Below, piece after piece: positions 2,928-36,044 of a stretch of 64,000 nt of DNA. The stretch is taken from NCBI RefSeq assembly GCF_046105845.1, contig NZ_CP151004.1; one strand, 5' to 3'. The DNA is from Escherichia coli. GTDB lineage: Bacteria; Pseudomonadota; Gammaproteobacteria; Enterobacterales; Enterobacteriaceae. Every line of letters begins with the position of its first letter. Position 1 is the stretch's first letter. Both the position numbers and the translations under genes were made by a program. A model generated the notes under the pieces. It saw only the letters and a program-made list of their open reading frames with translations. It ran no database searches and was not told the origin of the DNA.

Positions 2928-3390
2928 CGTTTTACTCTGTGTTGGCAATAGCATGATGGGCGATGATGGCGCAGGCCCGCTACTGGCGGAAAAGTGCGCC
3001 GCCGCGCCGAAAGGTCACTGGGTGGTGATTGACGGCGGTAGTGCACCGGAAAACGACATTGTCGCTATTCGCGAACTGCGCCCTACGCGACTGCTGATTG
3101 TCGACGCCACTGATATGGGGCTAAACCCCGGCGAGATCCGCATCATCGACCCGGATGACATCGCCGAGATGTTTATGATGACTACCCATAACATGCCGTT
3201 GAACTACCTTATCGACCAGTTGAAAGAAGATATTGGCGAAGTGATTTTCCTCGGCATCCAGCCGGATATCGTCGGCTTTTACTACCCGATGACCCAGCCG
3301 ATTAAAGATGCGGTGGAAACCGTTTATCAACGACTGGAAGGCTGGGAAGGGAATGGCGGATTCGCGCAGTTAGCGGTGGAAGAAGAGTAG
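2920..3390 (+). CDS. hycI: Hydrogenase-3 maturation endopeptidase
   Basis: 156 aa, N-terminus [22 protein letters not shown]; overlaps hycH end by 8 nt. Confidence 0.92.
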   Translation: MTDVLLCVGNSMMGDDGAGPLLAEKCAAAPKGHWVVIDGGSAPENDIVAIRELRPTRLLIVDATDMGLNPGEIRIIDPDDIAEMFMMTTHNMPLNYLIDQLKEDIGEVIFLGIQPDIVGFYYPMTQPIKDAVETVYQRLEGWEGNGGFAQLAVEEE

Positions 3391-3448
3391 TTCGTAGACA
3401 AACATGTTCACGTTTTGGAATTTGGACGTGCAATTGTGACGTGTAGAC

Positions 3449-3473
3449 GGGTGTTTACATATTGTGAACACCC
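3449..3473. promoter_or_regulatory. Inverted repeat GGGTGTT-N11-AACACCC upstream of the toxin gene; candidate antitoxin operator
   Basis: Perfect 7-bp inverted arms read directly in the sequence; a second related pair (tgttcac near 3406 / gtgaaca near 3464) lies nearby; about 85 bp upstream of the ATG at 3557. Confidence 0.35.
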
Positions 3474-3556
3474 GTGTGATCAACTACTATAGAAAAATAA
3501 ATCCGAAGGAATGGTAGTCCAGGTTTAGTCATTCAGGCGCTAATAAGGAAGTTAAA

Positions 3557-3868
3557 ATGCACATCATTTCTAAAGCGCCATTTGAAGAGTGTGCGCGCAA
3601 ATATCCTAACGACGCTCTGGCTCTACACTCATTGTATCGGGTTATTAAGGAAACGGATTTTTCTACACCAGAAGAAATGCGAACGGCGTTTCCCAACCTC
3701 GACAATTTTAGATATCGCAACAAATGGTACGTTCTGGATGTCGGCGGGAACAATCTTAGGGTTATTGCCTACATAAACTTTGTTAATAAGCGGTTCTTTG
3801 TGAAGCACATAACGAATCACGCAGAGTATGACAAACTGACACGTTACTACAGAGAGAACAAAGAATGA
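3557..3868 (+). CDS. HigB-family (RelE/ParE superfamily) mRNA-interferase toxin
   Basis: 103 aa; recognisable similarity to E. coli HigB (FPNLDNFRY...YVLDVGGNNLRVIA); SD aaggaag upstream; toxin-first order typical of higBA. Confidence 0.75.
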   Translation: MHIISKAPFEECARKYPNDALALHSLYRVIKETDFSTPEEMRTAFPNLDNFRYRNKWYVLDVGGNNLRVIAYINFVNKRFFVKHITNHAEYDKLTRYYRENKE

Positions 3869-4284
3869 CTGCTAATGCTGCACGCGCTGTTAAAGCAACA
3901 AGAGAACTGGTCAATGCAGTCCCCTTTCTGGGAGGTAGTGACTCAGAAGATGATTATCGTGAAGCACTGGAACTGGTCGAATATTTGATTGAAGAAGATG
4001 ACACCAATCCACTTATCGACTTTCTGGCGAGCCGCATTGCAGAATATGAAAACAACAACGAAAAGTTTGCCGAGTTCGACAAAGCCGTTGCAGCAATGCC
4101 GGTTGGCGTGGCGTTACTTCGTACGCTGATTGATCAACATAATCTGACCTATGCGGATTTGAAGAACGAAATCGGCTCTAAATCCCTGGTCAGTCAGATT
4201 TTGTCTGGACAACGATCCCTGACGATATCCCATATTAAGGCACTTTCAGCCCGATTTGGCGTTAAGCCGGAATGGTTTCTTTGA
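3865..4284 (+). CDS. HigA-family HTH (XRE-type) antitoxin
   Basis: 139 aa; start overlaps toxin stop (ATGA); C-terminal HTH-like segment (GSKSLVSQILSGQRSLTISHIKALSARFG) resembling HigA. Confidence 0.75.
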   Translation: MTANAARAVKATRELVNAVPFLGGSDSEDDYREALELVEYLIEEDDTNPLIDFLASRIAEYENNNEKFAEFDKAVAAMPVGVALLRTLIDQHNLTYADLKNEIGSKSLVSQILSGQRSLTISHIKALSARFGVKPEWFL

Positions 4285-4310
4285 TTTTGACTGATGCCAA
4301 ACGCCAGATT

Positions 4311-4335
4311 GCCCGATGCGCAACGCTTATCGGGC
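4311..4335. repeat. REP-like palindromic element
   Basis: gcccgatgcgcaacgcttatcgggc resembles the REP consensus; lies between the antitoxin gene and the ascB 3' end. Confidence 0.4.
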
Positions 4336-4362
4336 TTTCCTGGTTAGTGCGACAGTAGTTAC

Positions 4363-7253
<2,891 letters not shown>

Positions 7254-30116: not shown

Positions 30117-31700
<1,584 letters not shown>

Positions 31701-31708
31701 CAGAAAAG

Positions 31709-31781
31709 AAAAAGGCCACTCGTGAGTGGCCAAAATTTCATCTCTGAATTCAGGGATGATGATAACAAATGCGCGTCTTTC
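31709..31781 (-). ncRNA. micA: MicA (SraD) small regulatory RNA
   Basis: Minus strand reads gaaagacgcgcatttgttatcatcatccctgaattcagagatgaaattttggccactcacgagtggccttttt, i.e. the MicA sequence with its terminator hairpin. Confidence 0.9.
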
Positions 31782-31849: not shown

Positions 31850-32365
31850 ATGCCGTTGTTAGATAGCTTCACAGTCGATCATACCCGGATGGAAGCGCCT
31901 GCAGTTCGGGTGGCGAAAACAATGAACACCCCGCATGGCGACGCAATCACCGTGTTCGATCTGCGCTTCTGCGTGCCGAACAAAGAAGTGATGCCAGAAA
32001 GAGGGATCCATACCCTGGAGCACCTGTTTGCTGGTTTTATGCGTAACCATCTTAACGGTAATGGCGTAGAGATTATCGATATCTCGCCAATGGGCTGCCG
32101 CACCGGTTTTTATATGAGTTTGATTGGTACGCCAGATGAGCAGCGTGTCGCTGATGCCTGGAAAGCGGCAATGGAAGACGTGCTGAAAGTGCAGGATCAG
32201 AATCAGATCCCGGAACTGAACGTCTACCAGTGTGGCACTTACCAGATGCACTCGTTGCAGGAAGCACAGGATATTGCGCGTAGCATTCTGGAACGTGACG
32301 TGCGCATCAACAGCAACGAAGAACTGGCGCTGCCGAAAGAGAAGTTGCAGGAACTGCACATTTAG
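31850..32365 (+). CDS. luxS: S-ribosylhomocysteine lyase (AI-2 synthase)
   Basis: 171 aa; [10 protein letters not shown] metal-binding motif. Confidence 0.96.
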
Positions 32366-32381
32366 TCAGTTTAAGCAGAAG

Positions 32382-32414
32382 AGGCCGGGCTGGTGAAATC
32401 ACCGCCCGGCTTTT
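32382..32414 (+). terminator. Intrinsic terminator shared by convergent luxS and the HD-kinase gene
   Basis: gccgggc-tggtgaaatcaccg-cccggc hairpin followed by tttt; the minus-strand stop is at 32416..32418. Confidence 0.75.
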
Positions 32415-32415
32415 A

Positions 32416-33528
32416 TTACCTGTCAGTCACCCAATATTCCACACTATGTGCTTCATCAGGTTGAGGAACTTCCAGCCTTGAGGCCATCCGCATCACGACC
32501 GCTTCAGGAACTGCATACTCGCGTCTGGCATTTTGCTGCTTCCATTGCTCCCATGGCACTTCCAGATAAACGATTTTTACTCGTGCGCCGTAAGCCGTAA
32601 ACAGACTGATGAGCTGGCTACGCAGCTGGCGGGTAATGTTCGTCGCATTCCAGATGAACGGCTTTTTCTGGCGTAAAAAAACGCGCGCCTCTTCTTTTGC
32701 CTGTTGCACAATACGCCCGGTGGCGGTTTTGTCGTCCGGGCTGGCATTGATTCGCCGCCGCATATCATCAAGGCTGATAACGTCCATTCCCAGGCACAGT
32801 TCACTGATATAGCGATCTTTGCCCATACCCGGTAAGCCACACAGCAAAATAACCTCAAAAGATTCAGCCTCCCAGGGAACAAAATCAGGAGAACTTTGCT
32901 CATGAGTCAGGTAGTGCCAGCGTGCGGAATCAGACACGAACGGGCGCGCTTTTCCCCAGCATTGTTGCTCATGGCAAAACAGCTCGAACAGATCGATGCG
33001 TTCCAGCATTGATTGCTGGTCCGGGCTTTGGCGACCAAGCAGATCGGCACGAGCAAGCAAAGCGAGCAAACGCGTGTCGATGCGCATTGCAGCTGTGAGC
33101 AGCAAACGCTCCGGTTCCGGACGTTCCAGTAACCATAGCGGTAACCCATGCAGACGCACCAGCGCAACAATTTGCTCGCGTAGCACGAACGGCGTTGGGA
33201 TATCGCGCCATAAAATTTGTCGGGCCGTCAGTTCGCCCCGACGAGCATGGCCAGGCGACTGAATACGTCCGTTTTCCTGCACGGTAGTGCTGCGCTTTTC
33301 AACATCATGCAATAACGCCGCCGCCCATAAAACTTCCTGCTGTTGAGCGGGGAGTTGCTGGAATTCTGGCAGAGTAACGAGGGCGTTAAGTACCATTTCG
33401 GTATGCACGCCGACGTCGCCTTCACCATGATGCTCCGGGTCTTGTGGCGTGTGATGCATCTCCTCAACCCAACTGAAACGCTGGCGTAGCGCCGACCAGC
33501 GTTTATCGTCGGTAAGCTGCCAAATCAT
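32416..33528 (-). CDS. HD-domain phosphoesterase fused to a P-loop polynucleotide-kinase-like domain (putative end-healing enzyme)
   Basis: 370 aa; N-terminal HD signature ([11 protein letters not shown] ... AALLHDVEK ... GHARRG ... RLHGL ... ARADLLGR); C-terminal Walker-A-like [12 protein letters not shown] with Walker-B-like DVISLDD; start overlaps the upstream ligase stop (ATGA). Confidence 0.65.
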
Positions 33529-34232
33529 GATTGTTCTCCATAGGTGAACTCATGGGCCATCCGCGCCCGTTGCCAGTGGCGTTTCCAGTGTACGGTAGTT
33601 TTGACATGATTTTTGCGTACATACTTGAAGACGTTATGCGAAAAGTCAGCGACGGAAAACGCATCACGATTCCGGCTGACAATGCCTTCCAGCGTACAGG
33701 GTTGCCCGGTTTGTGTATCCCAGGGATCGAACGCGCCGCGCGCATTGGTCAGCGCCAGAAAATCACGTTGCCAGCTTTTTTCATCATTCCCCGGCTGCGG
33801 GCCGGAGATTTCGGGAACGCAGGGGAAATCAAACAGAGCGGCGTAAAACTGCACCTCTTCCCAGCTCAGCCACATATCCTGGCAGCGAACGGCAAACAGA
33901 TAAAAATCCTGCTCCAGGGCGCGATATTCAATCGAATGGACGGCATAAAGATTTTCACCAAACAACTCCAGATCGCCGAGATCGTTTTTCAGCAGTTGCC
34001 AGCGTTGGCGAATTTTATAGGTCCATGCCGACTGCGTAGGCGCGGCATGGGAACGGGCAAACACGCCGTAGCGGTTAAGGCAGTTATTTTCACCGTCGAG
34101 TTTTTCTGTGTGCACCAATTGCGTGATGGCCTGTAAATCCTGCCAGTAATCGGTGTTAATACGGTCATCGCTGGTGGTGCCAGGGGAGAAAGGATAATGC
34201 CAGGTTCTCCCGTATTTTCGTTGGGTATTCAT
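33525..34232 (-). CDS. ATP-dependent RNA ligase, Rnl2-like nucleotidyltransferase
   Basis: 235 aa; motif [10 protein letters not shown] (KxDGxN), motif III-like [11 protein letters not shown], motif IV-like EGIVSR, motif V-like FKYVRKNH. Confidence 0.65.
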
Positions 34233-34456
34233 AATAATCCATTATTTTGTGTGTAATAAATGTACGCCCGCGAGGGTGCGAGTTATGGGGTTAAAAGAAA
34301 AATGTGAGTATCACCCGCGAAAGCGAGGGCGAAGGAAAAAGAGAATTAACAACCTGAGCGAATGCTCAGAACCGGTTAATGGTGAATGGAAGAGTTTGGG
34401 GCGGCGAAAAGATACACCGAATGAGTGGATAAAACAACCGTTTGCAAAATGAGCAA

Positions 34457-34480
34457 ATAAAAAGGGAGCCGCAGCTCCCT
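34457..34480 (-). terminator. Intrinsic terminator of emrB
   Basis: Minus strand: gggagctgcggctccc hairpin followed by tttttatttg. Confidence 0.7.
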
Positions 34481-34489
34481 TTGACAACC

Positions 34490-36028
34490 TTAGTGCGCAC
34501 CACCTCCGCCGCCACCTGCGCCAAATGGCGGTTTAGCAAACCACACCAGCCCCAGCAGGACGAGGAATATCCCAGCTGACATCCAGAAGATCTCATTGGC
34601 GGAAATAATCAGCCCCTGATTGGTGATCTGCTGGGCAATCCAGCCTGATGCCTGCTGTTGCGTCATCCCAAGCCCTTCCAGTTGACTATACATCGCCTGG
34701 GCATTCGGGTTGAACGGGTTTACCGACTCAGTCAACTGCGCATGGTGCATCGACTCGCGGTTGGTCCACATGGTAGTGGTTATCGACGTGCCGATAGACC
34801 CCGCCAGCGTTCGCGTAAAGTTAGAGAGGCTCGATGCTGCCGCCAGTCGTTCCGGTGGCAAACCAGACAGCGTAATGGTGGTCAGCGGCATAAAGAAGCA
34901 GGCCACCGCAAAACCCTGGATAAACTGCGGCCAGGCCGACGCGCCAAAATCCATACCTGGTTCAAAGGTATAGGCACGCCAGTAGAAGCAGACGGCATAC
35001 ATAATAAAGCTGAAGGTTACCAGCCGCCGCATATCCAGTTTATGCGCGAAGCGGCCGATAATCGGCGACAGGATCACCGGAATAATTCCTACCGGCGCAG
35101 AGGCCAGACCTGCCCACGTTGCCGTGTAACCGTAGACCTCCTGCAACAACTGCGGCAGCAGAACAATCGCGCCGAAGTAGAGCATATACGCGAGGCTGAT
35201 ACACAAGCAGCCGATGGTGAAGTTGCGCGACTTAAACAACGACAGATCGACTATCGGGTTATCGTCGGTCAGCTCCCAGACAATCAGGAAGCAGATAGCC
35301 ACCACTGCCACCACGGTAAGGATGATAATTTCCTGTGATGAGAACCAGTCCAGCTCTTTACCGCGGTCGAGCATAATCTGCAGGCTACCGATACCAATAA
35401 CCAGCAGTGCCAGCCCCACGGCATCAATCCGCCGCCGTTCGGTGCGGGTTTCACGTCCGCGCAGGGTTTGCAGTGTCATCAACACCACCGCCACGCCAAT
35501 CGGTACGTTGATGAAGAATATCCAGCCCCAGTGGTAATTGTCACTGATATACCCGCCGAGGATCGGGCCGCAAATTGGCGCGACAATCACCGTCATCGAC
35601 CACAACGCCAGCGCGATCGAGCGTTTGGCTGGCGGGTAGTTATTCAGCAATAGACTTTGCGAAAGCGGAATTAACGGCCCGGCGACAATCCCCTGAATCA
35701 CGCGGAAGAAGATCAGCATATTCAGGCTGCTGGAGACACCACACGCCCACGACGCAATAGCAAAGGCGATGGTTGACCAGAGGAACAGTTTCACTTCCCC
35801 GACGCGCTTTGCCAGCCAGCCGGTAAGCGGGATCGAGATGGCATTCGCCACCCCGAAAGAAGTGATTACCCACGTTCCCTGGCTGAGCGATGAGCCCAGA
35901 TTCCCGGCGATAGTGGGGATCGCCACGTTAGCAATGGTGGAGTCCAGCACCTGCATGAATGTCGCCAGTGACAGCGCAATCGTCATAATGACCAGTTGCG
36001 CGCCTTCCAGCGGTTTTTGCTGTTGCAT
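34490..36028 (-). CDS. emrB: Multidrug efflux MFS permease (14-TMS DHA2)
   Basis: Start at MQQQKPLEGAQL; large hydrophobic protein downstream of emrA. Confidence 0.93.
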   Translation of the reverse strand: MQQQKPLEGAQLVIMTIALSLATFMQVLDSTIANVAIPTIAGNLGSSLSQGTWVITSFGVANAISIPLTGWLAKRVGEVKLFLWSTIAFAIASWACGVSSSLNMLIFFRVIQGIVAGPLIPLSQSLLLNNYPPAKRSIALALWSMTVIVAPICGPILGGYISDNYHWGWIFFINVPIGVAVVLMTLQTLRGRETRTERRRIDAVGLALLVIGIGSLQIMLDRGKELDWFSSQEIIILTVVAVVAICFLIVWELTDDNPIVDLSLFKSRNFTIGCLCISLAYMLYFGAIVLLPQLLQEVYGYTATWAGLASAPVGIIPVILSPIIGRFAHKLDMRRLVTFSFIMYAVCFYWRAYTFEPGMDFGASAWPQFIQGFAVACFFMPLTTITLSGLPPERLAAASSLSNFTRTLAGSIGTSITTTMWTNRESMHHAQLTESVNPFNPNAQAMYSQLEGLGMTQQQASGWIAQQITNQGLIISANEIFWMSAGIFLVLLGLVWFAKPPFGAGGGGGGAH

Positions 36029-36044
36029 CACACGCACCTCTGGA

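Follow-up and report, generated by a model that had tools for sequence, protein, structure and literature searches.

Can a kinase domain whose Walker A motif carries Asp at the position where Ser or Thr normally follows the invariant Lys still phosphorylate a 5'-OH end? The question arises from a gene in a 64,000-nucleotide stretch of Escherichia coli chromosomal DNA (hereafter the window). An earlier, sequence-only reading described the product as an HD-kinase fusion with an intact HD signature and a kinase that might be divergent or inactive. We consider it highly probable that the gene encodes the HD-Pnk orthologue of Escherichia, a bifunctional enzyme that heals nucleic-acid ends and for which the motif GLPGMGKD would be family-normal, that it is coupled to a ligase-family partner, and that D238 would act as a Mg2+ ligand. 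The coordinates of the gene, its parts and its neighbors are collected in Table 1.

Table 1. Features of the HD-Pnk locus in the window, with positions counted from the first nucleotide of the window. CthPnk is the polynucleotide kinase of Clostridium thermocellum.
Feature	Position	Strand	Details and basis
gshA	30144-31700	+	ORF
MicA sRNA	31710-31781	-	between gshA and luxS as in K-12; Rfam RF00078, 83.9 bits
luxS	31850-32365	+	ORF
Accessory segment, about 2.1 kb	32374..34489		K-12 annotation and junction alignment
GC-rich hairpin GCCGGGC...GCCCGGC, then TTTTATT	32384..32416		read from the sequence, between converging luxS and HD-Pnk
HD-Pnk ORF	32416..33528	-	370 aa plus TAA stop, ATG start; ORF listing
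P-loop polynucleotide kinase domain (~residues 222-366)	32431..32865	-	Pfam AAA_33, Foldseek and PDB profile matches
N294 codon AAT in FIWNATN, Walker B position	32647..32649	-	alignment, secondary structure and covariation; equivalent to CthPnk Asp78
D254-x-x-R257, predicted general base and orienting arginine	32758..32769	-	alignment to CthPnk Asp38/Arg41
D238 codon GAT	32815-32817	-	aligned with the Mg2+-ligating Ser22 of CthPnk
Walker A GLPGMGKD, residues 231-238	32815..32838	-	sequence; alignment to CthPnk
HD domain (~residues 26-215)	32884..33453	-	family conservation, PF01966, NCBIfam and PDB profile matches
RNA-ligase-family gene, 235 aa	33525..34232	-	Pfam RNA_ligase (PF09414), E = 4.4e-28; upstream of HD-Pnk
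emrB and emrA	34490-36037 (emrB)	-	ORF

The predicted architecture, with an HD phosphoesterase in the N-terminal half and a P-loop 5'-OH polynucleotide kinase domain in the C-terminal half, has the domain order and total size (~370 aa) of HD-Pnk. For the family survey we used 145 representatives with 33-55% identity to the window protein, drawn from a family that comprises 571 clusters at 50% identity (E ≤ 1e-30) and ranges over Enterobacterales, Bacteroidota and other phyla. Taken alone, the window sequence matches the HD domain family PF01966 weakly (E = 0.013), and 125 of the 145 family members match it at E ≤ 0.001. Its N-terminal half also matched the NCBIfam models HDIG and the HD part of CCA-adding enzyme (PRK10885, E = 1.3e-5), and the family profile matched class II tRNA nucleotidyltransferase structures (3wfo/3wfp). 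The expected metal-binding His and Asp residues (H42, H74-D75, H94, H127, and D162) are all present in the window protein and 99-100% conserved in the family, as part of a larger set conserved at 97-100% that adds H34, E36, K78, and R166; the HD signature is indeed intact, as had been claimed.

The kinase half is recognized by Pfam AAA_33 over residues 226-355 (E = 1.3e-32), and a profile of the HD-Pnk family searched against the PDB matched PSTK, CthPnk, T4 Pnk, and mammalian PNKP across the P-loop stretch. In a phmmer comparison with the PDB, GSSGSGKS of the CthPnk kinase domain (4gp6) aligned without gaps to GLPGMGKD. An AlphaFold model built from an alignment of 145 sequences (pLDDT 97.4, pTM 0.94) placed this motif between strand 225-230 and helix 237-244, and placed N294 as the last residue of strand 291-294, where the Walker B Asp sits. 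Foldseek matched the C-terminal domain to CthPnk (4gp6/4gp7) and T4 Pnk (1ly1) with a target-normalized TM-score of 0.75 and an rmsd of about 2.5 Å. Together, the AAA_33 match, the family-conserved HD residues and the fold matches bear out the proposed HD-kinase fusion.

The substitution itself is also real. The reverse complement of the Walker A segment reads GGC TTA CCG GGT ATG GGC AAA GAT (G-L-P-G-M-G-K-D), so that residue 238, directly after the Lys, is Asp and the protein departs from the canonical Walker A, as the alignment to CthPnk confirms. We considered whether the true P-loop might lie elsewhere. A motif scan of the whole protein found a single GxxxxGK motif, and every alignment put GLPGMGKD on the canonical loop; it is the true P-loop and a conserved feature of the domain rather than a chance match. 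The remainder of the kinase catalytic set is complete: K237, D254, R257, T296, and R336 align with Lys21, Asp38, Arg41, Thr80, and Arg120 of CthPnk, and R303 has another CthPnk arginine as its counterpart in the alignment.

Whether Asp at this position is a peculiarity of one clade was decided by the family alignment. Residue 238 was Asp in 113 of the 145 representatives, Ser or Thr in 24, Asn in five, and Glu in two; barring one degenerate sequence, the side chain always bears oxygen. K237, D254, R257, T296, R303, and R336 were 93-99% conserved (98-99% for D254 and R257), and the window protein retains all family-invariant residues. Judged by this conservation, GLPGMGKD is the usual Walker A form of the HD-Pnk family, neither a lesion nor a clade quirk. 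The alignment that had been proposed as a check on the GKD motif therefore finds it conserved as the majority state. A search of the literature available to us found no description of a GKD Walker A with aspartate in kinases.

The roles of the aligned residues are known from CthPnk, in which Ser22 is the only protein ligand of Mg2+ and its replacement by Ala abolishes activity, Lys21 makes a bridge from the beta to the gamma phosphate, Asp38 acts as general base, Arg41 and Thr80 bind the acceptor phosphate, and Arg120 contacts the gamma phosphate (PMC3902929). By analogy, we infer the metal-ligand geometry and the activity of the E. coli protein as follows. The C-terminal P-loop domain would use an NTP as donor and pass its gamma-phosphate to the 5'-OH end of RNA or DNA, with K237 bridging the beta and gamma phosphates, D254 serving as general base, R257 and T296 holding the acceptor strand, and R336 contacting the gamma phosphate. 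The carboxylate of D238, in place of the Ser/Thr hydroxyl, would be the protein ligand to the catalytic Mg2+; the Walker B aspartate is replaced by Asn294, which may donate a hydrogen bond to D238, such that the Mg2+ site would retain one negative charge, or carboxylate, and one hydrogen-bonded pair. Most simply, the carboxylate would have shifted from a second-shell place at Walker B to a first-shell place at Walker A. Following the Runella and Deinococcus model, the N-terminal HD domain would strip 2',3'-cyclic, 3'- or 2'-phosphates with a transition metal, and the ATP-dependent ligase-family protein encoded upstream, translationally coupled to HD-Pnk, would seal the healed ends.

The closest characterized relative comes from Runella. 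We traced it from a Tpt1/ligase/HD-Pnk cluster of R. zeae, whose HD-Pnk reads GLPGSGKD and FNATN, through a homology search with that protein and a cluster look-up, to AEI48611.1 of R. slithyformis DSM 19594. This protein (368 aa, versus 370 aa in the window) is 52% identical to the window protein over 368 aa, i.e., full length, with the same domain order and the same HD residues, and it carries GLPGTGKD followed by FVFNATNI, the same GKD/N configuration as the window protein. Its locus consists of the genes for Tpt1 and an MTase-HIT protein, a 151-nt spacer, the ligase gene, and the overlapping HD-Pnk gene; the Tpt1 sequence agrees with that of PDB 7kw8 at 100% identity. The same four-gene Tpt1/MTase-HIT/ligase/HD-Pnk order has been described for the characterized Runella enzyme (PMC6097658). 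Because the gene cluster matches that description and the Tpt1 is identical to 7kw8, we take AEI48611.1 to be the characterized protein. According to the same paper, Runella HD-Pnk was purified and analyzed biochemically as a 5'-OH polynucleotide kinase, and its ligase partner self-adenylylates and showed no ligation of the 3'-OH/5'-PO4 substrates tried (PMC6097658). Within the family, 5'-OH kinase and metal-dependent 2',3'-phosphoesterase activities are known from the Runella and Deinococcus homologues only.

Given that the Runella HD-Pnk, described as an active kinase, has the same configuration, the GKD loop is compatible with kinase activity. The suggestion of a divergent or inactive kinase is left without support, as the Runella enzyme is of the same GKD type and most family members have GKD. 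The prospect that the substitution is tolerated stands indirectly, by analogy with the Runella enzyme and its GLPGTGKD and FNATN motifs rather than through the E. coli protein itself. Munir and Shuman reportedly found in 2017 that the Runella kinase works with Mg2+ and accepts any NTP, and that its HD domain uses Ni, Cu or Co.

The family alignment further revealed that the Walker A residue does not vary alone. Across the 145 representatives, mutual information singled out position 294, by a wide margin, as the strongest partner of position 238. D238 was accompanied by N294 in 110 of 113 sequences, S/T238 by D294 in 19 of 24, and N238 by N294 in all five, D238 and D294 were never found together (0/145; Fisher p = 1e-16), and intermediate states were few (S/N in four, N/N in five). 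Because these nine sequences have no carboxylate at either site, the one-carboxylate pattern has exceptions. On a neighbor-joining tree computed without columns 238 and 294, parsimony assigned 26 changes to position 238 and 23 to position 294, and 16 changes fell on the same branch versus 2.1 expected (permutation p ≤ 1e-5); kinase-only and HD-only trees gave the same count of same-branch changes. S/D-type kinase domains were 37.5% identical among themselves versus 38.2% to D/N types, and the nearest neighbor of most S/D sequences was a D/N sequence. Two other histories, descent of all S/D sequences from one clade and acquisition of their kinase domain by a swap, are rejected on the domain-specific trees and the nearest-neighbor identities. 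The homology, the residue equivalences, the family-wide conservation and this coupled substitution are all direct results of our comparison.

In P-loop NTPases, a direct hydrogen bond joins the Walker A Ser/Thr, termed strictly conserved over these proteins, to the Walker B Asp (PMC9599734). This bond, together with the location of residue 294 at a strand end, may account for the covariation, and from the alignment the exchange looks like a recurrent, compensated relocation of the Mg2+-site carboxylate between Walker A and Walker B. We found no description of the 238/294 coupling in the searchable literature, nor anything relevant on the role of CthPnk Asp78, and regard the recurrent compensated exchange in the HD-Pnk family as modestly new. 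We offer more tentatively, as a possible reading, that the family has repeatedly traded the Ser/Thr plus Asp pair for Asp plus Asn, with switches in either direction. Such a natural double-mutant cycle would bring the carboxylate of the Mg2+ site from second-shell into first-shell coordination, and the use of metals or NTPs may not be the same in its two states.

The HD-Pnk gene does not stand alone. The product of the ligase-like gene directly upstream has nucleotidyltransferase motifs in its translation (EKLDGEN, FGENLY, EGIV, and KYVRK), and the two reading frames overlap by 4 nt, the ligase TGA and the HD-Pnk ATG both lying within ATGA at 33525-33528. Upstream of the ligase gene, neither a LexA-box-like site nor a strong sigma-70 promoter was seen. 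The two genes lie in an accessory segment; in its place, K-12 has just a 63-bp spacer with one terminator between luxS and emrB. No flanking repeats or mobility genes are visible at the 2.1-kb insert. The GC-rich hairpin at the luxS end, which a scan of the sequence did not list, is likely a terminator shared by luxS and HD-Pnk, as read from its sequence. A separate hairpin at 34461-34482 is emrB's own terminator and differs from the K-12 one, and MicA is ordinary and unrelated to the HD-Pnk finding. Neither HD-Pnk nor the ligase matched a PADLOC-DB 2.0 defense model at E ≤ 0.01.

The pairing of ligase and HD-Pnk is also found in Runella, on a P. aeruginosa plasmid, on a Variovorax plasmid, and in a 462-kb phage. 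In the last of these, the uncultured jumbo phage LR756500.1 (locus 3273-5041), the adjacent ligase and HD-Pnk share 39% and 34% identity, respectively, and the HD-Pnk is of the GKD type with Asn (GLPGSGKD/FIWNATN); it is matched over its full length by PHROG phrog_6931, which is labeled "unknown function" (E = 1.8e-16). The plasmid copies (P. aeruginosa, locus 3899-5041; Variovorax, locus 3947-5107) have a GKN P-loop and a Walker B Asn (WNSTH), a third active-site state with no carboxylate at either site, and the P. aeruginosa pair is flanked by IS21 elements.

Among complete E. coli genomes, the pair occurs in 999 of 5426, always chromosomal and single-copy, with ST131 EC958, Nissle 1917, and ATCC 25922 among the carriers, and is absent from the other 4427. 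We inspected eight complete genomes, a non-random sample spread by identity, and in six of these one gene of the pair was disrupted (annotated as a pseudogene), most often the ligase. The lesions comprised ligase frameshifts in Nissle 1917 and ATCC 25922, internal ligase stops in SC455 and VCSW7, an internal HD-Pnk stop in RM9872-C1, and a deletion reaching into emrB in Ecol_542; both genes were intact in the window, ST131 EC958, and W224N. Comparing the window allele with those of EC958, Nissle 1917, and SC455 gave dN/dS values of 0.11-0.13 for the whole HD-Pnk gene and 0.05-0.07 for the ligase. By halves, dN/dS was 0.04-0.05 for the HD part and 0.27-0.49 for the kinase part, the latter from only 7-10 non-synonymous changes. 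The HD-Pnk gene as a whole is under purifying selection within E. coli. None of the differences between the window protein and the other E. coli alleles falls at a conserved family position, and by its sequence the window copy looks functional. The Nissle 1917 HD-Pnk, identical to the ATCC 25922 protein (WP_000638135.1), carries R303S at an arginine found in 144 of the 145 representatives; its co-occurrence with the ligase frameshift points to decay of both partners in that lineage. In E. coli, the pair seems to be under patchy selection, and with disruption in six of the eight sampled genomes this selection may be weak.

The case for a dead kinase is chemical. Replacement of Ser/Thr by Asp could disable Mg2+-NTP chemistry, leaving a pseudo-kinase or a mere binder of NTP or nucleic acid in a module that heals 3' ends only, as might be expected from the loss of activity in CthPnk Ser22Ala (PMC3902929), from the strict conservation ascribed to the Walker A Ser/Thr (PMC9599734), and from the loss of the Walker B Asp as well (N294). 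We regard this as very improbable. Runella HD-Pnk, which is described as active, shares both GKD and Asn, and GKD is the majority state in a family in which the Lys, the general base and the arginines are strongly conserved too. Catalytic residues would not stay 93-99% conserved across phyla in a dead domain, and the coupled switching of 238 and 294 indicates a maintained, functional site. It is also conceivable that the kinase is active and that the Asp/Asn pair alters its metal preference, NTP donor range or pH profile relative to Ser/Asp relatives, making the two states functional alternatives rather than neutral equivalents; an inner-sphere carboxylate might, for example, favor Mn2+ or bind Mg2+ more tightly. 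A carboxylate differs from a hydroxyl in charge and ligand strength, and the repeated switching between two discrete states with few intermediates (four S/N, five N/N, and no D/D) would fit such a difference. Yet each state turns up in many parts of the tree without an evident tie to taxon or gene context, and both the GKD enzyme of Runella (Munir and Shuman in 2017) and the GKS enzyme of Deinococcus (Schmier and Shuman in 2018) reportedly use Mg2+, so that we consider altered properties unlikely.

A further reading concerns the module rather than the motif: the Escherichia pair could be an accessory island in decay that now does little, of which the window copy is an allele still unbroken. 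The disrupted partner in six of eight sampled genomes, the lack of the pair in 4427 of 5426 genomes, the R303S change in the Nissle/ATCC 25922 protein at a 99%-conserved Arg, and the kinase-domain dN/dS of 0.27-0.49 all lean that way. Set against them are the intact pairs in the window, EC958, and W224N, the low dN/dS of the whole HD-Pnk gene and of the ligase, the retention of every family-invariant residue in the window protein, and the non-random choice of the eight genomes by identity; on balance, general erosion seems doubtful. The reading we prefer is that of a family-normal HD-Pnk with a working kinase site, paired with its ligase-like neighbor.

The window protein is, by its sequence, the E. 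coli member of an already known family. In about 18% of complete E. coli genomes this gene is labeled only "ATP-binding protein" or "AAA family ATPase"; homologues are also called "poly(A) polymerase," "predicted kinase," or "putative nucleotidyltransferase with HDIG domain," and HD-Pnk was not a name borne by any homologue listed. The poly(A) polymerase label probably arose because the HD half is akin to CCA-adding enzymes. No NCBIfam model covers the family, the best match reaching 31.7 bits. We suggest that the gene can be named HD-Pnk and its neighbor the cognate ligase-like protein, the two forming a putative accessory module for RNA/DNA end healing and sealing. For enzymology, GKD need no longer be read as the mark of an inactive kinase, which removes a false alarm, and the contrast between D238/N294 and S/D lends itself to a clean experimental test of how the active site of a P-loop kinase can be rewired with compensation. 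The frequent independent disruption of one partner prompts one to ask which function the module serves and whether HD-Pnk can act without the ligase.

Among known systems, the module of R. slithyformis is the nearest (HD-Pnk: Munir and Shuman 2017, J Bacteriol 199:e00739-16). Its ligase-family protein is 57% identical to the E. coli partner, and the open reading frame overlaps that of HD-Pnk in the same way; unlike it, the E. coli pair lacks neighboring Tpt1 and MTase-HIT genes and forms a two-gene insert between luxS and emrB. A contig scan seeded with Tpt1 (the 7kw8 sequence) returned R. zeae and 79 other loci, mostly from Chryseobacterium with other Bacteroidota; HD-Pnk occurred in none of the 79, and R. 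slithyformis was not returned. With ligase and HD-Pnk beside Tpt1 in only one of 80 loci (R. zeae), the Tpt1 association of Runella is not general. HD-Pnk of D. radiodurans (DR_B0098) is the same fusion of HD and P-loop kinase and belongs to the same family, in an operon (LIG-PARG-HD-Pnk) that likewise contains an RNA-ligase-family gene. It differs in sharing only about 27-31% identity with the window protein, in having a canonical GPSGSGKS P-loop with a Walker B Asp (VWDATT), i.e., GKS with DAT, and in the PARG-like gene (TIGR02452) between ligase and kinase. It is reported to be needed for radiation resistance (PMC6300522).

More distant systems share one half of the protein at most. The bacterial Pnkp of the Pnkp-Hen1 system combines kinase, binuclear metallophosphoesterase, and ligase in a single protein of ~850 aa; the window protein scored 31.7 bits against its model (TIGR04075, bacter_Pnkp; cut-off 750), with the kinase part alone aligning, and falls outside it. 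The closest relatives of the N-terminal half in sequence and fold are the HD domains of class II CCA-adding enzymes/tRNA nucleotidyltransferases, from which the window protein differs in lacking their nucleotidyltransferase head domain and in having its HD module fused to a kinase. For the kinase half, CthPnk (4gp6, 4jst, 4mde) and T4 Pnk (1ly1, 1ltq) have the same fold and the same catalytic Lys, general-base Asp, Arg, acceptor Thr, and lid Arg, and differ in pairing GKS with an Asp in the Walker B region where the window protein has GKD and Asn294. They differ also in their partner for 3' end healing, which is a binuclear metallophosphoesterase in CthPnk, a DxDxT acylphosphatase in T4 Pnk, and an HD domain in the window protein.
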